Shown here: positions 1 through 46,477 of the stretch, piece by piece | Numbering within the stretch: position 1 is the first letter of the stretch | Layout: each line of letters begins with the position of its first letter | Virus record (IMG/VR): IMGVR_UViG_3300031760_000013 | Span: 66,458-112,934 of that record | Length of the DNA stretch: 46,477 nucleotides | From: a virus | Taxonomy: Duplodnaviria > Heunggongvirae > Uroviricota > Caudoviricetes | Direction: 5' to 3' (one strand) | The notes under the pieces: model-generated | What the model was told of the DNA's origin: nothing | What the model saw: the letters and a program-made list of their open reading frames with translations, nothing else | Databases searched by the model: none | Made by a program: the position numbers and the translations under genes

Positions 1-162
1 GTTGCCCACATGCTTAAAGTCAAGAACGCCAATACTGCACTTTATGACGACGCAATCAAGAAGTATCGTGTTGAACGCCCTGAGTACAACGATGAAGAGG
101 ACGAAGTGATGTTGTACGATATTTTCAAGGGTAGTGACGAAGACGATGACGAGACAGGATAA
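1..162 (+). CDS. 3' end of upstream gene, 5'-truncated (position suggests terminase small subunit or neighbour)
   Basis: Frame 1 open from base 1 to TAA at 160-162 (VAHMLKVKNANTALYDDAIKKYRVERPEY...DDDETG*), overlapping the TerL start. Confidence 0.6.
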   Translation, partial: VAHMLKVKNANTALYDDAIKKYRVERPEYNDEEDEVMLYDIFKGSDEDDDETG

Positions 163-1924
163 GATCGCGGAGGGCGCTGCGTATTGGGCAGCGTTCTATA
201 GAGCTAATCCTTGGCGGTTCGTCAGAGACTATCTGCATGTCGATCTAAAACTATTTCAAAAGATACTATTGACGATGATGATGGTGTCATCGTCATTTGC
301 GTTTATTGCCGCACGTGGCATTGGTAAAACCTTCCTAAGCGCGATATATGCAACAGTTCGCTGTATCCTCTACCCCGGCACGAAAGTCTGCGTTGCATCC
401 GGTGTTCGCAGTCAAGGTGTCGCAGTTATAGATAAAATTCGTCTCGAGCTCATCCCAAATTCAAAAGAGCTCGAAGCCGAAATAGATAGCATCAAAATCA
501 ACGGAACGATATGTGAGGTCGTATTTAAGAATTCAAGCTTTATCAGGGTCGTCACCGCAAGTGACTCAAGCCGAGGCAACCGTGCAAACGTACTGCTGCT
601 TGACGAGTGCAGAATGATCAACCCGAACACGATCGATGTCGTTCTTCGTAAGTTTCTTACACAGCGGCGTATGCCGAGATATTCCGAACTCACAAAAGAG
701 CAACGTGAGCGAGAATATGATAAAGAGAAAAACATAACCATGTATCTCACCTCTGCATATTGGGAGGATTCATGGGTATTTGCCAAGTGCCGCGACATCT
801 TCAAGAACATGCTTGACGATTCACGAAGGCAGTTCGTGTGTGGGTTCCCCTACCAGCTTTCAATCGCAGAAGGCTTGCTTGACAGAGAGCTGATTGAGGA
901 TGAGATGATTGAGAGCAGCTTCAATGAAGTAAAGTTCTCGATGGAGTACTGTGCTGAGTTCTATGGTTCAAGCGACGGGGCGTTCTTCGATTTCGATTCT
1001 ATTTCTAAAAATAGAAAGCTGAAGTACCCGATGTACCCAGACGCTGTATCATCGCAGCTCTCCGGCACATTAACACGAATACCGCAAAAGATAAATGGCG
1101 AAATAAGAATACTATCTGCCGATATCGCATTGATGTCTTCGAAGAAGAACAACAATGACGCTACGGCGATTTTTATTAATCAGATGATGCCGACCAAGGC
1201 AGGAAGGTATACAAGCAACATTGTATACACTGATGCAATGGAAGGTATGCATACTGAAGACCAAGCGCTGATCATCCGCAAACTCTTTGATGAATACCAG
1301 TGTGATTACATTGTGCTTGACTGCCAGGGTGCAGGTATAGGTGTGTATGACGCTTTAGTCAGAGACGTTGTGGACTCTGAATCCGGAGAGATTTATCCTG
1401 CGTTGTCTTGCTGCAATGACAAGACAATGGCAGAGCGTTGTTCTTCTCCGAACGCAGATAAAGTAATTTGGTCTATCAAGGCTAACGCTCAGATGAACTC
1501 TGATTGCGCCGTGCTTCTCCGTGAAGGGTTCAGAAGTGGCAAGATCAGGTTGCTCACATCTGAATATGATGCCGAGGAACTGCTTGGCGAGATCAGAGGC
1601 TATAGCTCTATGAGCCCAGCAGAAAAAGTGAAGTATCAGATGCCGTACATTCATACGACGCTGCTCATCAACGAGTTGGTAAATCTGCGGTATGAAGAGC
1701 TTGGCGGCAAGGTCCGAGTATACGAAAGGTCTGGTATGCGTAAGGACCGATACTCCAGCTTGGCATATAACTATTATGTTGCAACACAGCTTGAATCGCA
1801 GATGAGTAGAAAGAATGCAATCTCATCTGGCGACAATGATGTGTTTATAATAAGACCTCCAAAATATACAGGAAAGGTGGTGGGAACTAGACGTGGCAGT
1901 AAAGAAAACAGCAGATGGTATTAA
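146..1924 (+). CDS. terL: Terminase large subunit
   Basis: Walker A AARGIGKT, Walker B LLLDE, C-terminal RNase H-like SADIAL...DCQG...KDRYSS; lies before portal. ATG 146 preferred to GTG 134. Confidence 0.93.
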   Translation: MTRQDKIAEGAAYWAAFYRANPWRFVRDYLHVDLKLFQKILLTMMMVSSSFAFIAARGIGKTFLSAIYATVRCILYPGTKVCVASGVRSQGVAVIDKIRLELIPNSKELEAEIDSIKINGTICEVVFKNSSFIRVVTASDSSRGNRANVLLLDECRMINPNTIDVVLRKFLTQRRMPRYSELTKEQREREYDKEKNITMYLTSAYWEDSWVFAKCRDIFKNMLDDSRRQFVCGFPYQLSIAEGLLDRELIEDEMIESSFNEVKFSMEYCAEFYGSSDGAFFDFDSISKNRKLKYPMYPDAVSSQLSGTLTRIPQKINGEIRILSADIALMSSKKNNNDATAIFINQMMPTKAGRYTSNIVYTDAMEGMHTEDQALIIRKLFDEYQCDYIVLDCQGAGIGVYDALVRDVVDSESGEIYPALSCCNDKTMAERCSSPNADKVIWSIKANAQMNSDCAVLLREGFRSGKIRLLTSEYDAEELLGEIRGYSSMSPAEKVKYQMPYIHTTLLINELVNLRYEELGGKVRVYERSGMRKDRYSSLAYNYYVATQLESQMSRKNAISSGDNDVFIIRPPKYTGKVVGTRRGSKENSRWY

Positions 1925-3422
1925 TCCGATCAGCGCGGATAAGCTTGGCATGATCGGCATGTCGGAAAAATTTGCCATCATAAATAAATTGATTACCAGA
2001 GATCTGAATGGTCGGGTAAGGAACCCTTACTTTACAAGATACAGTAAGGATGACATCACGAAGTTTCTGGAAGATCCAAACAAGTATGAGAAGGAATTAC
2101 GCGATGCAATCACATACATCTATAGCGCGAGTTCTCATTTCCGCAGATTAATACAGTATTTTGTTTCGCTCTCCGATTTGCGGTATGTGGTGTCTCCGTA
2201 CAAGATTGACCCGAAGAAGGCAAATGTAAGAACGACTGCAATCAACTACAGAAAAGTTCTGAACATCCTCTCGTCTATGAGCATCCCAACACAGTTCCCG
2301 AAAATACTTACGGTGTGCTTGCGGGAAGATACCTTCTACGGGACGATGCGTATATCCGCTGACAGTATTATCATTCAGCAGCTGCCTAGCGATTATTGCA
2401 AGATATCATCGATCGAGAATAACGTGCTGAACGTTACGTTTAACTTCTCGTACTTTGACTCACGGCAGGATCTGCTACCGTTCTTCCCGGAGGAGTTCGC
2501 AAAGAAGTACAACATGTACAGAAATAACAGAACGCTCATGTGGATAGAGCTTGATGCGCCGACTTCCTTTGCGATCAAGTGCACGAGCGATATCTTGGAT
2601 TATGCAGTACCTCCGTTTGTAGGGCTCCTCAGAGAGATATACGACATTGAGGACTACGCACAGCTCAAGCTTGCGAAGACTGCACTTGAAAATTATGCGA
2701 TGGTCGCCATGAAGCTGCCGATGGACGAAGAAGGCAGATGGAAGCTTGACTTTGATAAAGCGAAAGACTTCTGGTCAAATCTGGACAATGTGTTGCCTGA
2801 TGAAATCGGTTCGATCCTTACTCCAATGGATATTGAGAAGGTTAGTTTCGAACGCAGCCATGCAGACGATACGAACACTGTAACGCAGGCAGAACAGGAT
2901 CTCTATACAGCAGCCGGGGTCTCCTCCCTGCTGTTCAATAACGAGAAAGCTTCTGCGAATGCGCTGCTACTCTCAATTAAAGTTGACCAGGCGCTCACCT
3001 TCGGTATTGTGAAGAGTATTGAGGATATGGTCAACAGGTATATCCAGTACCAGAGCTTCGGGAAGAACTTTAAAGTTACGTTCCTCGATGTGTCTCCGTT
3101 TAACCGCAAAGAGGTTGGCGACGCATATCTTAAGGCGGCCACATACGGTCTCCCGACAATTAGCATGTATGCTGCTTCTCAGGGGCTCGGTCAGGCTGAG
3201 CTTGACAGCATGAGCTTCCTCGAGGGCGATGTGCTTGGACTTGTCGAAATGTTTGATCCTTTGCAGAATACGGCGCAGATGTCTTCTGATGATCAGAGTT
3301 CCAGCGGTTCATCTAATGTAGAAGTGGATGAGAATCCAGAAGGAGGAAGGCCTGTGGAAGAGATCGACGAGCTGACTGATTCTGGAGAACAGACACGAGA
3401 GGATTCTTCTGACTGGGGTTAA
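1893..3422 (+). CDS. Portal protein
   Basis: 509 aa directly after TerL and before protease/capsid; acidic C-terminal tail (GGRP..E motif) typical of portals. Confidence 0.8.
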   Translation: MAVKKTADGINPISADKLGMIGMSEKFAIINKLITRDLNGRVRNPYFTRYSKDDITKFLEDPNKYEKELRDAITYIYSASSHFRRLIQYFVSLSDLRYVVSPYKIDPKKANVRTTAINYRKVLNILSSMSIPTQFPKILTVCLREDTFYGTMRISADSIIIQQLPSDYCKISSIENNVLNVTFNFSYFDSRQDLLPFFPEEFAKKYNMYRNNRTLMWIELDAPTSFAIKCTSDILDYAVPPFVGLLREIYDIEDYAQLKLAKTALENYAMVAMKLPMDEEGRWKLDFDKAKDFWSNLDNVLPDEIGSILTPMDIEKVSFERSHADDTNTVTQAEQDLYTAAGVSSLLFNNEKASANALLLSIKVDQALTFGIVKSIEDMVNRYIQYQSFGKNFKVTFLDVSPFNRKEVGDAYLKAATYGLPTISMYAASQGLGQAELDSMSFLEGDVLGLVEMFDPLQNTAQMSSDDQSSSGSSNVEVDENPEGGRPVEEIDELTDSGEQTREDSSDWG

Positions 3423-3425
3423 AAT

Positions 3426-3602
3426 ATGAATAATGCATTTATCTATGTCTTTAGTGTTGATGATAAGAACACCATGATTAGTAATGGATACACTATGCTA
3501 AAGGCAGACGAAGAGAATAATATCTATATTTTTGAAAACAGTGGCGCTAAGTATGAAGAGCTTGGCGTCGCTTTTGTATTATCCAACACTTTGACATTCT
3601 AA
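3426..3602 (+). CDS. Small hypothetical protein (58 aa)
   Basis: MNNAFIYVFSVDDKNTMISNGYTMLKADEENNIYIFENSG...; starts 4 nt after the portal stop; below the ORF-track cutoff. Confidence 0.7.
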   Translation: MNNAFIYVFSVDDKNTMISNGYTMLKADEENNIYIFENSGAKYEELGVAFVLSNTLTF

Positions 3603-3620
3603 TAAAAGGCAAGCAAGAAA

Positions 3621-3648
3621 AAAAGCAAGCAAATTAATGCTTGCTTTT
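3621..3648. terminator. Intrinsic terminator-like hairpin, possibly bidirectional
   Basis: Perfect 11-bp stem AAAAGCAAGCA/TGCTTGCTTTT, loop AATTAA, A-tract upstream. Confidence 0.65.
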
Positions 3649-3769
3649 ATACCGGTGGACAAAGTACCGATCAACTAAGTATGACACAAATGTTATGGAT
3701 TGTGTCATTAAGTGAATCAACAATTGAACCAAATAACATAACCGAATGTAAAAGTGAAGAGTTAATACG

Positions 3770-4054
3770 TTTAATAAAAAGATAGCCGCTCAGACTGTAA
3801 CAATCTTACTTCATGATGAAGATTTTAAACTTCACAGTTTTCTTACTGTAATTAGTCTTAACTACCTTGAGATGTTTTGTATAAGTAGTTTTCACCATAA
3901 TATCACCCCGCTAATCGAGACACACCCGACATAAAGAGTGGGTGCGGCGCACAAGCGCTGCACGGCAACGCCGTTCAAGCTAAAAAGAGCGGATGCTGGC
4001 AAGTCGACAATGTGGGAAATAAATATAGTTAAGCGGCTATCTCTTTTTATTAAA
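3770..4054. repeat. Segment bounded by a 21/23-bp inverted repeat, with an internal GC-rich multi-hairpin
   Basis: TTTAATAAAAAGATAGCCGCT (3770-3790) vs AGCGGCTATCTCTTTTTATTAAA (4032-4054): complementary except a 2-nt indel. Confidence 0.75.
3806..3898 (-). CDS. Putative 30-aa basic peptide
   Basis: MVKTTYTKHLKVVKTNYSKKTVKFKIFIMK*; GGGGTGA RBS-like sequence a few nt upstream of ATG. Confidence 0.3.
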   Translation of the reverse strand: MVKTTYTKHLKVVKTNYSKKTVKFKIFIMK

Positions 4055-4116
4055 GCATAAATCTAAAAGAATGTAAAGGGTAATCAACAAATAACAATTA
4101 CCAGGAGGTGGTTATC

Positions 4117-5676
4117 GTGAACCATTTGATGAAGCTTCGTTTTGATGATGCTTCTATTACAGACCTCGAGGATATCAACCCGTCGTTTGCTAGCGGGAAT
4201 CTGAAGGTTATGTACACAGGAGAGAATCCGAACGGGACAAATTTCTCAAAGGAAGTTATTGAGGCCGCTCTCCCTACCATTCGTAACGTACCGATTGTCG
4301 CACATTATGATGCGGAAGAGAATGAGATTGGTTCCCATGATATGGAAGTGGTCGCAGATAAGGAAGGGAATCTCCGTCTGCGCAATCTGACTGAACCGTG
4401 TGGTGTCGTTCCAGAGAGTGCTGAGGCAACTTTCACTACTGAGAATGATAGCAACGGAGTGGCGCACGAGTATCTCAACATCTCCCCTGTTATTTTGTGG
4501 AAACGCCAAGAGGTTTACCGCCATATTGTGAACGACCTTGATGGTAGGGTCGACCACTCTATGGAAGTTAATATCACCGCATATCATAAAGAAAAAGATT
4601 CCAGCGTCGTTACTGTTGACGCGTTTGAATTTCAGGCTCTCTGCCTTCTGGAAAGCGCCAAGCCGTGCTTTGCAGGCAGCGAGCTTGAACTATATTCGGT
4701 CGACTCTTTTAAAGAGAAGATGGCAGAGATGATGGCGGAACTCAAAGAGACATACTCTTTGGGAGATATTCAGGTCAATGCTCATGAAGATGAGATTGAT
4801 ATAAATGTTGACTCTGTTACGAAAGGAGGAAGAGTTTTGGACGAAAAACTTAGTCTGATTGAAGAGTATGCTATCGACAAAGACACACTCGATTTTTCGC
4901 TCGACGATTTCTCTCTTGAAGAGCTGCGTGAAAAGTTTGAAGCAATGAAGGAGGAGCAGGCCGAGGCGGAGCGTGTTGCGAAGTTTGAGCTGTCTTCCAA
5001 TATGCGTAAGGCGCTTTGCGATGCTCTTCAGGAAAAGACAGTGCAGAAATACTGGGGTGAGTACCAGCTGTACTGGCTTGAAGATTTCGATATGGATGCT
5101 GGCATGGTATACGCATGCAATTGCGACAACTACAACATCTACGGCTTCTCTTATTCCATGAATGGCGATGCCGCTGTTATTGACTTTGAGTCTGGCAAGC
5201 GGATGAAACGCGCATTCGTTGAATACGATGAAGGTGCAGATGACGATGTTATCACTGTTATGTTTGCTGATATCGAGAAGCACTATACCGAAAATGAGAC
5301 GCAGCTTACTGAAAAATATAATGCTGTTTCCGAAGAGCTCTCTCAGCTCAAAGAGGCTACGGCTGATATTGATGAACTGCGTAAATTCAAAGCCGATGCT
5401 GAAGTTGCCGAACTGAATGCAAAACGCGAAGCTGTGTTTGCTAAGTTTGAAGATCTTTCTGGTGTTGAGGCATTTGAGAATCTCCGCCTGAATTGTGCGG
5501 ATTATGAGTTGGATGCTCTCGAAGAGAAGTGCTACGCGATCCGGGGCAGAAACGGATTCGTTGCAAAGTTCTCCGCTGAGGAGAAACCGACCAAGATTGT
5601 CGTGGATACGACTAAAGTGAATGACGACCCGTATGGCGGGATCGTCCAGAAGTACGGCGCTGCCGCACGTGATTAA
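4117..5676 (+). CDS. Prohead protease / scaffold fusion
   Basis: Between portal and capsid genes; N-terminal protease-like part (HSMEV motif) and acidic coiled C-terminus; AGGAGGT RBS favours GTG 4117 over 4108. Confidence 0.7.
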   Translation: MNHLMKLRFDDASITDLEDINPSFASGNLKVMYTGENPNGTNFSKEVIEAALPTIRNVPIVAHYDAEENEIGSHDMEVVADKEGNLRLRNLTEPCGVVPESAEATFTTENDSNGVAHEYLNISPVILWKRQEVYRHIVNDLDGRVDHSMEVNITAYHKEKDSSVVTVDAFEFQALCLLESAKPCFAGSELELYSVDSFKEKMAEMMAELKETYSLGDIQVNAHEDEIDINVDSVTKGGRVLDEKLSLIEEYAIDKDTLDFSLDDFSLEELREKFEAMKEEQAEAERVAKFELSSNMRKALCDALQEKTVQKYWGEYQLYWLEDFDMDAGMVYACNCDNYNIYGFSYSMNGDAAVIDFESGKRMKRAFVEYDEGADDDVITVMFADIEKHYTENETQLTEKYNAVSEELSQLKEATADIDELRKFKADAEVAELNAKREAVFAKFEDLSGVEAFENLRLNCADYELDALEEKCYAIRGRNGFVAKFSAEEKPTKIVVDTTKVNDDPYGGIVQKYGAAARD

Positions 5677-5696
5677 TTAATAGGAGGATAAATACT

Positions 5697-6218
5697 ATGG
5701 CAAATTATGCTGTTGTCCGTACGGATAAACTTATGGGCACGGATGTCCGCTCCATGCTTGAAACTGTGAAGTACATGGGCGCTGGTTCTACCGCAACCGC
5801 TATTGAAAACGGTAATGTTGTTAAAGTTGACGGCACTCTGCTTGCCGACTCCGATGGTGTTACCATTCGTGAAATTAAGAAGGGTGTTACCCCTGCTGCT
5901 ACTTCCAAGCTTGATGAGATCGTTCTGATCGCGACTCCGGAAGTTATGTATGATGAGCGCAAGAAAGGCCTTGATGAGTTCAGAAATGAAGCCGGTAAAC
6001 TGGCTCGTGGCTATCACCTGCACTCCGGCGACATTTTCTCTGTGACCGCCGAGGCTCTTGTAAACGCAAGCCCCGCTGTTAACCAGATCATTGAGCTCGC
6101 CGCTGGCACTAAGTTGAACAACGTTGCAACTGCAACCTCTGGTTCTACCGTTATTGGTAAGATTATCGCTATTGACGTTGTCGGTCGTTACACTTACTAC
6201 GTCATCCAGGTAGCATAA
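5697..6218 (+). CDS. Head decoration / capsid-associated protein
   Basis: 173 aa, Ala/Gly/Thr-rich beta-type sequence immediately upstream of MCP, highly biased codon usage, GGAGG RBS. Confidence 0.6.
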   Translation: MANYAVVRTDKLMGTDVRSMLETVKYMGAGSTATAIENGNVVKVDGTLLADSDGVTIREIKKGVTPAATSKLDEIVLIATPEVMYDERKKGLDEFRNEAGKLARGYHLHSGDIFSVTAEALVNASPAVNQIIELAAGTKLNNVATATSGSTVIGKIIAIDVVGRYTYYVIQVA

Positions 6219-6250
6219 TCACTGGACAATTAAATAAGGAGGATACTATC

Positions 6251-7264
6251 ATGGCTGATATGAAAGATATTGTAAAGCTTGCTATTGATAATTATCACGG
6301 CAGAGTACAGAAATACTCCGCTAGCGAAGCTAACGAAACACTTCGCCAGGCTCTGATCGAAGCCAACAACGGCTCTACCAAGCTTGACTATAAAGCAATC
6401 CGTGACGGCAAGTGCCCGAATCTGTTTGCTCTGATTGAGGAAGTTCTGTCCGCAACTGTAGTTGAGGGTCTGACTCAGAACGACTTCTTCAACAATTTTG
6501 TTGAGTATCACAACGTTGCTCTCGGCGACGCTCCTGTGTTTGTGACCGAAGACAGCAATCTGTATGTTGTTGCAGAAGCTGCTGATGGCACTCAGGGCAT
6601 CCGTCGTCAGCGTCTCGCTGGTGAGTCCGAGTTTACCATTCCGACAACCTTCAAGGCTGTCCGTATTTATGAAGAGCTCAACCGTGTCCTGTCTGGTCGC
6701 GTAGACTTCAACACCATGATCGGCAAGGTTGCTGAGTCCTTTGAGAAGAAGATCCTTGACGATATCTATGCTCTGTGGAGCAATGTTGCTGCTGCCGACC
6801 TCGGCGGTGCAACCTATGTTGTTACTTCCGGTAGCTATTCCGAGAGCGACCTGCTCGACCTTGTAGCACATGTTGAAGCTGCTGCTGGCGGCAAGACTGC
6901 TACTCTCGTTGGCACCAAGAAAGCTCTCCGTACGATCGCTCCTTCTGTTCAGGGTATTGACTCTCAGAACGATCTGTACCATCTGGGCTATTACGGCAGT
7001 TTCTATGGCTCTCCCGTCATGGCACTCCCCAACCGCCACAAAGTCGGCACGACCACTTTCGTTCTTCCTGACGATGTGATCACTGTTGTGGCTGGCGACA
7101 TGAAGCCGATCAAGTTCGTTTACGAAGGCGATCCTCTCATGATCATGGGCGATCCTCTGCAGAACGCCGATCTTACCCAGGAATATTTCTTTGGTGAGAA
7201 ATATGGTCTCGGTATCGTCCTCGACGGTGGTAAGAACACCGGCGTTGGCCGTTACGAGTTCTAA
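6251..7264 (+). CDS. Major capsid protein (HK97 fold)
   Basis: 337 aa, position in head module, strong RBS, biased codons, followed by a GC hairpin at about 7294-7316. Confidence 0.8.
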   Translation: MADMKDIVKLAIDNYHGRVQKYSASEANETLRQALIEANNGSTKLDYKAIRDGKCPNLFALIEEVLSATVVEGLTQNDFFNNFVEYHNVALGDAPVFVTEDSNLYVVAEAADGTQGIRRQRLAGESEFTIPTTFKAVRIYEELNRVLSGRVDFNTMIGKVAESFEKKILDDIYALWSNVAAADLGGATYVVTSGSYSESDLLDLVAHVEAAAGGKTATLVGTKKALRTIAPSVQGIDSQNDLYHLGYYGSFYGSPVMALPNRHKVGTTTFVLPDDVITVVAGDMKPIKFVYEGDPLMIMGDPLQNADLTQEYFFGEKYGLGIVLDGGKNTGVGRYEF

Positions 7265-43951: not shown

Positions 43952-45115
43952 CTACTGCGTTAATAGCTCTGCACATAGGTCAGAGCCGACCGATTTTAAG
44001 TGCTGATTCGTTAAATGCCCGTAAACATTTCCTGTTGTTTGGATATCAGAATGACCAAGCCACTGTTGTACATCCTTGAGATTATGCCCTGATTCTAGCA
44101 GTATGCTTGCACATGAATGCCTTAAATCGTGAAGCCTTATATCCGGCATCCCATGTCGCTCTAGAATCTTGTGAAAAGTTTTTGTGATATAGTCTGGCGA
44201 ATAGGGCTTGCCGCTATCCCACTTGAACACATAATCGTTCTTGATGTATTTGTCACCAAGAAGTTTTTCATTTAATTCTTCCCTCGCCTTAGCATCAGTG
44301 AAAATCTTTTCTATCTCTGGAGTCATAGGGTACACTCTGTAGCTATCGTCGGTTTTGGTGTCATCCTTCTCGACGATCGAACTGCATCTGCATACGACGT
44401 GCTTTATAACTACCTGCTTGTTATTGAAGTCTATACTATCCCATTTTAGCCCCAACAACTCACTGCGTCTCAACCCATACAACGCAGTAACTGTTATGAG
44501 CGGAGCAAGTTTCTCACCCTGGATTAATTGGAATAGGTTACGCATCTGGCTTGAAGCGTAGAAAGATGGTTTAAACTTCTGTTTCTTTGGCCGCTTTATT
44601 TTGCTGACCGGATTCTCAGAAATCTTTTTCTTATTCACAGCATCATCACAGATAACGCTTAGAACAGTGAGATAGTTCCTTACCGATTTGTTTGAAAGAC
44701 CGCCGCCAGTTTTTACATTGCCGCATTCAGACATATGCGCAGAAAAGTCTTCAACGATTTCAGGCGTGAGATCTTGTATCGCAACCTTGCGCTTCTTGAA
44801 GTATGGAACGATGTGGCTCTCAACACCGATCTTGTATCCTTGGAATGTGATGGGATCGTACACACGCTCAGCGTATATTATCCATTTCTCTGCATATTCA
44901 GCGAGTGGTTCTTTCTTAACTGTTGCGACTTCAAATGACTTATCTTGGTATTCAGTTATAGTATCGTCGAGGAATTTTTTAGCAGCTCTTTTGTTGTGCC
45001 CATCGACACTCAGCTTGGTCGGAATCCATTTCTGTTTCCGAACGCCATCCTTATCCGTTATATTAAGGACGGCATAGTACATATTCTTTTTAATTTGTAA
45101 GCTTCCGGTTATCAT
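43952..45115 (-). CDS. int: Tyrosine integrase
   Basis: GLRRSELLGL (R), HDLRHS (HxxR), LGHS, VYGH (Y); GGAGGT RBS supports ATG 45115. Confidence 0.95.
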   Translation of the reverse strand: MITGSLQIKKNMYYAVLNITDKDGVRKQKWIPTKLSVDGHNKRAAKKFLDDTITEYQDKSFEVATVKKEPLAEYAEKWIIYAERVYDPITFQGYKIGVESHIVPYFKKRKVAIQDLTPEIVEDFSAHMSECGNVKTGGGLSNKSVRNYLTVLSVICDDAVNKKKISENPVSKIKRPKKQKFKPSFYASSQMRNLFQLIQGEKLAPLITVTALYGLRRSELLGLKWDSIDFNNKQVVIKHVVCRCSSIVEKDDTKTDDSYRVYPMTPEIEKIFTDAKAREELNEKLLGDKYIKNDYVFKWDSGKPYSPDYITKTFHKILERHGMPDIRLHDLRHSCASILLESGHNLKDVQQWLGHSDIQTTGNVYGHLTNQHLKSVGSDLCAELLTQ

Positions 45116-45180
45116 ATTACACCTCCGTCGAACGGAAGCCATGACATATATGTATTTTGATTATAAGTGACGGAGAGCGT

Positions 45181-45363
45181 TTATTCAAGCACTGATTCTT
45201 TAACAAATCTGATCACCTCCGACTTTGGAATCAAATACGGCTTGCCTATGTCGAGGCGTCTGATTCTCTTTTCTTGTACGAGCTGATACGCTCGGTATAC
45301 TTTTATTTGTAGCATTTCTGCCAGTTCTTTTATCGTAACGATATCGCTGTATTTTTCAAAAAT
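45181..45363 (-). CDS. xis: Excisionase-like helix-turn-helix protein; start codon uncertain (ATT 45363 or GTG 45411)
   Basis: FEKYSDIVTIKELAEMLQI...AYQLV...I...IGKPYLIPKSEV; directly upstream of int. Confidence 0.75.
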   Translation of the reverse strand: MFEKYSDIVTIKELAEMLQIKVYRAYQLVQEKRIRRLDIGKPYLIPKSEVIRFVKESVLE

Positions 45364-45566
45364 ATTATTCACCTCTGTTTTTAAGTGCTCAAGCCTTCTC
45401 CCAACAAGCACTCATTGCTCCCAACCGTCCGATATTTACAGCCTCGCACTACGGCTTTGGCTAGCAGGAGCGTCCCTTGTTATTCACGTGGTGGAAATAG
45501 CTGCCGGGTCTAAGCCTCATCAGTTACACGGCTATCGCAACCACATGGTATTTATATAAAACGCGC

Positions 45567-45595
45567 TTGACATTACTTCAGATTTAGACTAAATT
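45567..45595 (+). promoter_or_regulatory. sigmaA/sigma70-type promoter
   Basis: TTGACA (45567-72), 17-nt spacer, TAAATT (45590-95). Confidence 0.7.
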
Positions 45596-45600
45596 ATTGT

Positions 45601-45958
45601 TGCCCATTCACAGCGTAAATGTGAGGGCAGGAAAGGAGCGTGGTCAATTTGGCCAAGTTTTTGATTCTGCCTGTCTCTGAAGTAATATCAATGCATTGGG
45701 CAGAAACGGCTTAATGCCGTTCTTTGCAGAACCCGACTGCTAAAGTGCGATCGCCTTGGGTAAGAGAGGGTGGCACATCACACCCATGTTCATAGCGGGG
45801 AAATCGAGCGTCGCCAGTTACTCACCTGCATATACAGAATGAAAGGAATCTTGTTTTGTGAGTAGCGGAACAAGTGTCGCTATGTTCATTGCGCCAAGGC
45901 TCAGGGAAAACAAATTGGGAAAATACTGCCGGTAGATGTGACCGGTGGTATTTTATTT
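45601..45958 (+). ncRNA. Candidate structured non-coding RNA (~355 nt)
   Basis: Own promoter and terminator, at least 7 helices including nested long-range stems, no ORF of 60 aa or more. Confidence 0.55.
45920..45958 (+). terminator. Intrinsic terminator
   Basis: 14-bp stem AAAATACTGCCGGT/ACCGGTGGTATTTT; its two wobble pairs work only on the + strand. Confidence 0.7.
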
Positions 45959-45959
45959 G

Positions 45960-46127
45960 TTACCACTCTTCGAAGTCATCGTAGTCCTGTTTCTCGCGTC
46001 TGCCTTTAAATTTTTTAGCGTGCCAATCCTCTTTCTCGACAAACATCTCAAAATCATTGCCGCCTTTATTCTCTTTGGCACGACTATTATCTTTCTGCTG
46101 CCAATTCTTATTTTGGTTTCTACTCAT
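45960..46127 (-). CDS. Small charged hypothetical protein (55 aa)
   Basis: MSRNQNKNWQQKDNSRAKENKGGNDFEMFVEKEDWHAKKFKGRREKQDYDDFEEW*; GAGG RBS; ATGA overlap with the upstream ORF. Confidence 0.65.
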   Translation of the reverse strand: MSRNQNKNWQQKDNSRAKENKGGNDFEMFVEKEDWHAKKFKGRREKQDYDDFEEW

Positions 46128-46267
46128 TTCAGCCTCGGCTCGATCAGATATTTAAATATAAACATACCAATTGTGACCCCAATGATATCATAGACTGAGA
46201 TCTGCCAGCGTGGCAGAGGCGACGGAGCGCACCAGTATGCAACAAAATTACTCAGTAGATTCGCCAT
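46124..46267 (-). CDS. Small membrane protein (47 aa)
   Basis: MANLLSNFVAYWCAPSPLPRWQISVYDIIGVTIGMFIFKYLIEPRLK*; GAGG RBS; coupled to both neighbours. Confidence 0.55.
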   Translation of the reverse strand: MANLLSNFVAYWCAPSPLPRWQISVYDIIGVTIGMFIFKYLIEPRLK

Positions 46268-46475
46268 CGTCCTCGTCCTCCTTCATGTAATACCCGTCTG
46301 GGCTATAATAGTTTAAATCTGGGTTAGATGGTTCGCATATACAACACGGTTTGCCATCAGATGAAGACGGCGGTTCATATATACATCCTTTACACGACCA
46401 TGTATTTTCTTTTACATGGTCGTTTTCTTTTCTCATTTTAAGCAGCTTATTAAATATATCGATCTCTAAACTCAT
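46248..46475 (-). CDS. Cys-rich hypothetical protein
   Basis: CKGC...CCIC; the start lies at the window edge. Confidence 0.5.
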   Translation of the reverse strand: MSLEIDIFNKLLKMRKENDHVKENTWSCKGCIYEPPSSSDGKPCCICEPSNPDLNYYSPDGYYMKEDEDDGESTE

Positions 46476-46477
46476 CA

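Follow-up and report, generated by a model that had tools for sequence, protein, structure and literature searches.

A self-contained RNA gene at positions 45567 to 45959 of a Caudoviricetes sequence is very probably a diverged and expanded member of the FuFi-1 family (Rfam RF02986). The gene lies in IMG/VR record IMGVR_UViG_3300031760_000013, of which positions 66,458 to 112,934 were analyzed; this stretch of 46,477 nucleotides (nt) is referred to here as the window, and its numbering is used throughout. The assignment follows from a full-length match to the covariance model of the family taken together with a conserved linker, a loop-loop contact, and a 5' domain. We consider probable the explanation as a whole, namely, a FuFi-1-family gene with the anatomy and placement described below that would act in cis as a brake on neighboring excision genes; the brake, taken by itself, is proposed tentatively.

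The interval contains an entire gene, from promoter to terminator, whose product is a structured RNA of about 355 nt. The position of its sigma-70-type promoter predicts a transcription start near 45601, and the -35 and -10 elements and the 5' hairpin downstream of them line up with the promoters of other FuFi-1 units. The longest open reading frame (ORF) in 45597-45958 encodes 36 amino acids (aa). When the whole unit was folded and compared with shuffled sequences, 0 of 100 shuffles were as good on the plus strand (z = -4.17), and the result for the minus strand was weaker (z = -2.14). Because no gene follows on the plus strand, an attenuator or 5' untranslated region (UTR) reading was rejected. 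A preliminary description of this DNA, made from its letters alone, had pictured a highly structured lysogeny RNA with a promoter and a terminator of its own. It saw the unit as bracketed by the two signals, devoid of ORFs of 60 aa or more, and opposed to both of its neighbors. Each of these statements agrees with what we found: the gene stands in the lysogeny module of a temperate phage, the promoter (10/12) and the terminator (a 14-pair stem with a U-tract) are present, no ORF reaches 60 aa, and the minus strand carries both flanking genes, namely, the xis-like gene (45181-45411) and the 55-aa ORF (45960-46127). The direct repeat that it reported (11/12, at 45786 and 45882) is likewise in the sequence. 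Its claim of novelty fared differently, since it had named a match to an Rfam family as the finding that would end that claim, and the match to FuFi-1 (RF02986; 49.2 bits, below 59.6) effectively does so.

FuFi-1 is an orphan RNA of temperate phages of gut bacteria and of Clostridia, found in phages and prophages of Firmicutes. The motif was reported by Weinberg et al. in 2017 (PMC5737381); that report places FuFi-1-type motifs seldom in 5' UTRs, gives negative results for self-cleavage assays, describes the function as unknown, and ranks FuFi-1 among the motifs whose conservation points to a sophisticated biochemical function. It also records a rho-independent terminator at the FuFi-1 3' end, and the window has one at 45920-59. 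A literature search found no later paper and no functional study of FuFi-1.

The comparison with Rfam that the preliminary description had proposed gave a divided answer, with no match at the gathering threshold and a FuFi-1 match, at an E value of 2.7e-9, that spans all 175 model positions. This is the sole such match in the 112.9-kb genome. It covers only the 3' 255 nt, that is, the 3' two-thirds of the transcription unit, and its alignment contains an insertion of about 80 to 85 nt in the second inner hairpin (P4). Two observations count against the assignment. The match was found by E-value reporting at 49.2 bits, the Rfam gathering score for FuFi-1 being 59.6 bits, and nothing in the window reaches the gathering thresholds in the Rfam scan. 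In addition, the outer stem P1 is not formed, the aligned GGCAGAA and UGCGAUC being mismatched; the 5' strand of the Rfam P1 is used instead by a helix that we call P0 or by the UUCUGCC pairing (both described below).

Because the score is below threshold, evidence outside the covariance model was sought. The window shares with the family the hallmark GCAGAACC hairpin followed by AAAGUG, a P2 junction that encloses two hairpins, an intrinsic terminator at the 3' end, the AGGGNAAACAAAUUNGG linker, and the pairing of the P3 loop with the terminator loop, and like its relatives it is a stand-alone gene of a phage rather than a 5' UTR. It differs in its score (49.2 bits against a cutoff of 59.6), in the replacement of P1 by P0 and a local hairpin, in the insertion of about 80 nt in P4, and in its location at the xis-int junction of a 113-kb phage instead of beside a Cro/CI-type repressor gene. 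It is very improbable that the unit represents a new kind of structured RNA, one without kinship to any catalogued family. The lack of a match at Rfam gathering thresholds would agree with such a reading, as would blastn searches of the unit, which found no similarity in 50,697 phage records and none to canonical FuFi-1 loci, but the full-length model match at E 2.7e-9 argues against it, and the linker, the kissing loop, and the 5' domain also fit FuFi-1 independently of the model.

Within the modeled part, the hallmark hairpin (GCAGAACC..CUGC, with its GCAG/CUGC helix at 45726-40) is present, and the P2 stem encloses P3 and P4 in the FuFi-1 arrangement. RNAalifold analysis of eight canonical members confirmed the core helices, with compensatory changes in 23 of 47 pairs. 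The interior of P4 (45786-45893) folds no better than shuffled sequences (z = -0.50), so its inner helices, including UUACUCAC/GUGAGUAG, are unsupported; these two strands are complementary at 45818-25/45858-65, where the preliminary description had listed them. All of the helices listed there exist at their places, but the inner helices of the nested domain lack support and the 5' pairings have a competing set.

The long insertion is no bar to membership, since three relatives that score above threshold are also enlarged: L200 (80.8 bits), L204 (78.9 bits), and L207 (97.3 bits) are 212 to 277 nt long, compared to about 160 nt for the canonical form. By alignment the extra length of L200 sits in P4, as it does in the window, and P4 is expanded in L204 and L207 as judged by length and sequence. 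The opposite extreme is a short form of 103 nt (L208, 1501-1603; 48.9 bits), in which the 5' domain is retained together with the GCGGAACC hairpin, the linker, and the terminator; its P2-P4 junction is apparently missing, and its short ORF continues without a nearby stop.

The linker between P2 and the terminator provides a specific signature of the family. The window sequence AGGGAAAACAAAUUGGG at 45903-19 agrees with the family consensus AGGGUAAACAAAUUUGG. A search of viral contigs with the pattern AGGGNAAACAAATTNGGNAA gave 54 matches, and 48 of the 50 listed are FuFi-1 at 118 to 148 bits (96% specific), mostly from phages that have terminal repeats and measure about 45 kb, the other two being plainly coding or unrelated sequence. 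Canonical FuFi-1 RNAs (118 to 148 bits) are carried by L016/L069 and 47 further IMG/VR contigs, where complete genomes, again of about 45 kb and ending in terminal repeats, are represented; each of the 24 records with a completeness of 90% or more has one.

A second signature is the contact between two loops, which the present analysis derived from covariation in the family and which, as a pseudoknot, cannot be scored by the covariance model. The P3 loop is complementary to the terminator loop in every family member, and at least 10 different sequence pairs were seen, for example, GGUCUCGUC/GACGAGACC, GCGCUAU/AUAGCGC, GCACCAU/AUGGUGC, AGUGCCGUU/AACGGCACU, GGUUGCGG/CCGCAACC, GGCAUCU/AGAUGCC, and CAGUUGCAUU/AAUGCAACUG. 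In an eight-sequence alignment, eight column pairs joining the two loops are almost fully paired, most of them with two or three pair types. The corresponding loops of the window, CACAUC (45774-79) and GAUGUG (45935-40), form 6 bp; by our estimate the chance of a 6-bp match between two loops of 8 to 9 nt is about 0.3%. The kissing-loop sequences fall into several discrete types that differ sharply among otherwise near-identical canonical phage RNAs.

About 100 nt at the 5' end of the unit lie outside the Rfam model and have homologs in the sequence that precedes the core in other FuFi-1 units. In nhmmer, a profile of eight other lineages, with the window excluded, matched 45625-45677 at an E value of 1.1e-6, the next best match in the 46 kb having an E value of 0.23. 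Ten lineages have in common a promoter, a 5'-terminal hairpin, a Shine-Dalgarno (SD)-like purine tract, a small hairpin containing UUG or AUG, and a conserved block, in that order; in the 10-lineage alignment the block reads CUUUUGAnUUUGCCUGyUCC (the CUUUUGAnUUUGCC block). The domain is closed by P0, which joins the extreme 5' end to the motif just upstream of the GCAGAACC hairpin. Pairing of the 5' end with the core amounts to 15 bp in L207, 9 bp in both L204 and L200, and 7 bp in L069. When MAFFT and RNAalifold were applied to the 5' domains, nothing beyond the SD/anti-SD helix and the hairpins emerged; because the 5' ends were misaligned, P0 was tested by duplex energies and permutation, and the strands paired better with their own partners than with swapped ones (P = 0.008).

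Inside P0, the purine strand (45625-32) pairs with 45665-72 in a long imperfect hairpin, a helix that reaches 14 to 18 bp in L204 and L200. In the window this hairpin holds the SD-like element GGAAAGGAG (45630-38), an apical hairpin UGGUCA/UGGCCA (45641-55), and a UUG at 45649-51. The 5' pairings of the preliminary description, UGCCC/GGGCA with UCACA/UGUGA (45601-29) and UUCUGCC/GGCAGAA (45665-71/45699-705), are present as well, and the first and the last of these three compete with the set just described (45600-06:45697-703 and 45625-32:45665-72). The combination of UGCCC/GGGCA and UUCUGCC/GGCAGAA is an alternative joining of the same four elements; the minimum free energy (MFE) prediction prefers the P0 set, and covariation in the family supports its outer helix (45600-06:45697-703). 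We dropped the idea that the conserved block pairs with the linker, the complementary segment of the window being at a nonhomologous position.

The SD-like element and the start codon behind it raise the question of whether the functional product is a peptide of 21 to 24 aa (from 45649 or 45640 to 45714), or its translation, with the unit serving as a small mRNA or as a dual-function RNA that the ribosome would refold. We regard this as improbable. An SD-like element followed by UUG or AUG occupies the same alignment column in all 10 lineages, and its apical-loop position in L200 and L204, apart from the helix strands, makes it look like a feature in its own right. The first 10 codons are also alike (M-x-K-L-L-x-L-P-V/A-P), L201 has an in-frame insertion of 3 nt, and several differences are synonymous. 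The ORF runs through the 3' strand of the long hairpin, and about half of the lineages, including the window, have its end beside the 3' strand of P0, so that translation would unfold the 5' domain; the stop codon in the window, UAA at 45712-14, falls in the loop of the hairpin at 45705-21. However, the start is UUG in 8 of the 10 lineages, and there is no excess of variation at third codon positions (summed entropy of 5.7, 5.6, and 6.6 by position). The length of the ORF varies from 11 codons to more than 36, conservation stops at codon 10, and in L200 and L207 a 1-nt deletion shifts the frame while the nucleotides remain conserved. Pairing with the purine strand accounts for the conserved block. 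In Firmicutes an SD-like element near the 5' end can stabilize an RNA without productive translation, as does STAB-SD of cryIIIA, which also speaks against a peptide. It is more likely that the SD and short ORF act as a ribosome-binding stabilizer or a translation-coupled folding element than as a peptide gene. The caveat of the preliminary description, that ribosome-binding motifs might drive short peptides, thus stands as far as the SD-like element and start are concerned, which recur in all 10 lineages; the evidence for a functional peptide is weak. A type I toxin-antitoxin mRNA, which would encode a small hydrophobic membrane peptide with a single transmembrane helix and be overlapped by an antisense RNA, does not fit either: the hydrophobic run in the 21- to 24-aa peptide is only about 8 residues, and the ORF is unconserved beyond codon 10.

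Positions of the RNA gene, its structural elements, and neighboring features, in window coordinates
Feature	Position	Strand	Remarks
Tyrosine integrase gene	43952-45142	-	Downstream of xis-like gene, same strand
xis-like gene	45181-45411	-	Pfam HTH_17; divergent from RNA promoter; sole HTH_17 in genome
Sigma-70-type promoter	45567-45595	+	TTGACA-17-TAAATT; 10/12 consensus match
P0 closing helix, 5' strand	45600-45606	+	UUGCCCA; pairs with 45697-45703; MFE of 5' domain; duplex -11.3 kcal/mol
Small hairpin	45608-45624	+	UCACA/UGUGA; local insertion in 5'-terminal hairpin
Long imperfect hairpin	45625-45672	+	Purine strand GGGCAGGAAAGGAGC pairs with conserved block GUUUUUGAUUCUGCCU; MFE
Short ORF	45649-45714	+	21 codons from UUG (24 from GUG at 45640); stop UAA at 45712-14; coding status uncertain
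16-nt inverted repeat, second arm	45676-45691	.	First arm at 45567-82; 15/16 here, 16/16 in L190
P0 closing helix, 3' strand	45697-45703	+	UGGGCAG; overlaps Rfam-aligned 5' strand of P1
FuFi-1 covariance model match	45699-45954	+	Model positions 1-175 of 175; 49.2 bits, E 2.7e-9
Hairpin	45705-45721	+	AACGGC/GCCGUU; at position of internal loop of Rfam P1
Hallmark hairpin	45726-45747	+	GCAGAAC(C)...CUGC (GCAGAACC..CUGC), then AAAGUG; high posterior probability; identical motif in canonical members
P2, 5' strand	45753-45759	+	GCCUUGG, 7 bp; closes multistem junction; pairs with 45894-45900; P2 covaries in family
P3 hairpin	45768-45785	+	GGGUG/CACCC; loop CACAUC (45774-79) complementary to terminator loop
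P4 with insertion of about 80 nt	45786-45893	+	Only closing stem CAUAGCG/CGCUAUG (45791-97/45878-84) well supported
P2, 3' strand	45894-45900	+	CCAAGGC; pairs with 45753-45759
Single-stranded linker	45903-45923	+	AGGGAAAACAAAUUGGGAAAA, conserved, between P2 and terminator; fits pattern AGGGNAAACAAATTNGGNAA
Intrinsic terminator	45920-45959	+	14-pair stem (45920-45954) and U-tract; terminator prediction
55-aa ORF	45960-46127	-	Last small ORF of long leftward operon, which runs into back of RNA terminator

A pattern specific for the linker of this variant found one true relative in JGI metagenomes (L190, 98.5% identical) and ten chance matches. The same pattern matched 95 stretches of 185,579 representative genomes, and of the 80 listed only 2 were true FuFi-1. 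The RNA of L190 is 99.2% identical to that of the window, compared to 93 to 97% for the flanking genes, and the three substitutions within the RNA are all at unpaired positions. These comparisons bear on the possibility that the unit is a decaying, nonfunctional remnant of a FuFi-1 cassette acquired by recombination, which we think scarcely tenable. Such decay would accord with the subthreshold score, the loss of P1, an insertion that has no stable fold, and the lack of the RNA in the closest relatives. Against it stand the intact promoter, terminator, core helices, kissing loop, and linker, as well as an RNA that is more alike in the two phages than are the genes around it and whose substitutions avoid paired positions.

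The preliminary description had suggested collecting homologs of the RNA beside related integrases. This search returned none: six viral contigs with integrases 44 to 82% identical to that of the window have no FuFi-1, and eight loci of Clostridia with 36 to 45% identical integrases have tRNAs and lack FuFi-1 within 1.5 kb. The RNA thus does not follow the integrase lineage; it is a movable module. In the closest sister (L056, integrase 82% identical), the slot of the RNA (1750-2780) holds four or five small ORFs on the same, minus, strand, bounded by the xis-like gene and a conserved Cys-rich ORF of 65 to 75 aa, which indicates that the RNA cassette was swapped in or out at the xis-like junction.

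The gene lies antisense between the end of a long leftward early/metabolic operon and the xis-like and integrase genes, beyond which, to its left, is the att region. The operon (minus strand; L190 1-6800, equivalent to 1-6808 of the record, G000) encodes a dUTPase, a xanthine/uracil-type permease, a split PTH2 domain protein (peptidyl-tRNA hydrolase), an NrdG-like Fer4_12 protein, a weakly nucleoside deoxyribosyltransferase-like protein, and small ORFs. From this layout, transcription that reaches xis-int from upstream crosses the RNA gene in antisense. The 112.9-kb record is classed as linear and is circularly closed or permuted, the window end at 46477 joining position 1 of G000; metagenome contig L190 runs unbroken from window 44757-46477 into G000 1-6808. 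A circular or permuted record fits a free or circular form of the phage. The spacer that separates the xis-like gene from the RNA promoter (45468-45540) may be a decayed partial duplicate of the 3' part of the RNA: two stretches of it are imperfect direct repeats of the RNA, 45468-90 resembling 45806-28 (78%) and 45493-507 resembling 45918-32 (80%), and the spacer also has a hairpin-like AUAGCUG...CGGCUAU.

An inverted repeat of the promoter region gives the minus strand a copy of the -35 element and spacer of the RNA promoter, in the promoter-like site TTGATA-16-CAGAAT (45691-45664; 9/12). This site would face the RNA promoter with an overlap of about 55 nt. The repeat may provide two operator sites spaced by about 109 bp, supply a facing promoter, or form a stem in the leftward read-through RNA. 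In L207, two TTGACT-17-TATAAT promoters form a comparable inverted pair, and in 5 of 10 lineages a promoter matching 10 to 12 of 12 consensus positions faces the gene just past the terminator. A promoter scan of the window found no strong facing promoter; the minus-strand candidate there has a 9/12 match and a weak -10 element.

FuFi-1 members sit among the small helix-turn-helix (HTH) regulator genes of the lysis-lysogeny switch. L016/L069 and L198 have a divergent HTH_17-type gene upstream and an HTH_3 gene downstream (the HTH_17-type call in L198 was read by eye from the translation), and the L069 protein aligns over the HTH_17 region of the window xis-like protein (BLASTP E value of 3e-5). 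A LexA-like HTH_3 and S24 repressor gene lies downstream of the unit in L201, and Cro/CI-like genes flank the units of L199, L203, L207, and L208, an annotation that is backed by Pfam for L199 and made by eye for the other three. No match to HTH_3, HTH_19, HTH_26, or Peptidase_S24 was found anywhere in the 113-kb genome, which leaves a low probability that the RNA and its divergent HTH_17 partner are the main control of lysogeny or excision in this phage. Three sister phages without the RNA each carry an HTH_3 gene. This apparent anticorrelation is not evidence that the RNA takes the place of a repressor, because in one of the three, G001, the HTH_3 gene shares an island absent from the other genomes with a PemK-like gene and is distant from the integrase.

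Because the RNA gene faces the transcription that enters the xis-like and integrase genes, we tentatively propose that the unit acts in cis, through antisense or convergent transcription, as a brake on excision. The minus strand also reads a terminator-like signal at 45945-45929, inside the plus-strand terminator, and the element is probably bidirectional, as predicted from sequence; it would then halt read-through from the operon. The strong RNA promoter would fire head-on against any leftward promoter, the weak copy of its own -35 element and spacer lying 55 nt inside the gene, and the RNA would be fully complementary to the leader of any xis-int message starting upstream. The main contribution of the compact fold and the SD-like element would be to stabilize the RNA or to bind a factor. 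Excision functions would thereby remain silent while the RNA promoter is active.

Face-to-face promoters with a short overlap are known from coliphages 186 and P2 (pR/pL and Pe/Pc), where both transcripts are mRNAs for regulators. The predicted overlap of about 55 nt between the plus-strand promoter and the minus-strand copy of its -35 element and spacer is similar, and through transcriptional interference the weaker promoter would be held down by the stronger one where lysogeny or excision is decided. The window differs in that one partner is an elaborately folded, self-terminated RNA and the minus-strand promoter is a weak match to the consensus. Lambda OOP and P22 sar are antisense RNAs of 69 to 77 nt that act only via complementarity. 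Like the window unit, they are terminator-ended RNAs with their own promoters, opposite a regulatory message of a temperate phage, whereas FuFi-1 units are 300 to 450 nt long and have a conserved tertiary structure. On the Enterococcus plasmid pCF10, the prgQ/Anti-Q system also combines convergent promoters, a short 5' ORF in a terminator-ended RNA, and an HTH regulator gene in the opposite direction; prgQ encodes a secreted precursor of a pheromone inhibitor, and unlike it the short ORF of the window has no signal-peptide character and no conserved C terminus.

Several points weigh against the explanation that we favor. Phages with related integrases do without the RNA, and unlike most FuFi-1 members the window copy is not beside a Cro/CI-type repressor gene. 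The window variant itself yields no covariation, since the single other copy is 99% identical. The transcription start, the bidirectional termination, and the minus-strand promoter are predictions. Simple antisense action does not explain the strong conservation of the junction nucleotides and the tertiary contact, which argues for a protein or ligand partner or some other function in trans.

A FuFi-1 member acting in trans, with a fold that binds a protein or the ribosome or with a role as an RNA immunity factor like the P4 CI or P1 c4 RNA, would have an antisense placement that is incidental or secondary. We judge this main alternative unlikely, though it agrees with several observations. 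The invariant junction nucleotides and linker and the retention of a covarying tertiary contact exceed the needs of an antisense RNA, the unit has its own promoter and terminator, and the genome has no match to a Cro/CI-type HTH or an S24 peptidase. The kissing loops, moreover, differ sharply between near-identical phage copies, as specificity determinants would. But the partner or target is only hypothetical, and the variation of the loops could reflect free covariation or module exchange. The head-on placement to lytic or excision transcription also recurs, and it would be needless for an RNA that acts purely in trans. The structured immunity RNAs P4 CI and P1/P7 c4 pair with sites on a target transcript. 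They resemble FuFi-1 in being structured phage RNAs, encoded in the immunity region, whose complementary loop sequences vary between related phages, and they differ in that both complementary loops of FuFi-1 are within one RNA; no sequence or fold similarity of the window RNA to P4 CI or P1 c4 was found, as there was no such Rfam match. That FuFi-1 units are the RNA components of a lysis-lysogeny/excision switch, in which the covarying kissing loops serve as a specificity code, is a rather improbable extension of these ideas.

Our findings argue for filing the unit under FuFi-1, as a diverged gene, rather than setting up a new class of RNA for it. The window copy extends FuFi-1 below the Rfam threshold, into large (113-kb) phages, and to the xis-int junction. 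Together with its relatives it indicates that the catalogued FuFi-1 model is incomplete and that the real unit has a conserved 5' domain, a helix from the 5' end to the core, and an SD-like element, with a covarying contact that ties the terminator loop to the P3 loop. The family has remained an orphan from 2017 onward; if its units do form an RNA-based switch, they would represent an RNA immunity system in phages of Firmicutes, with a role comparable to that of the P4 CI or P1 c4 RNA.

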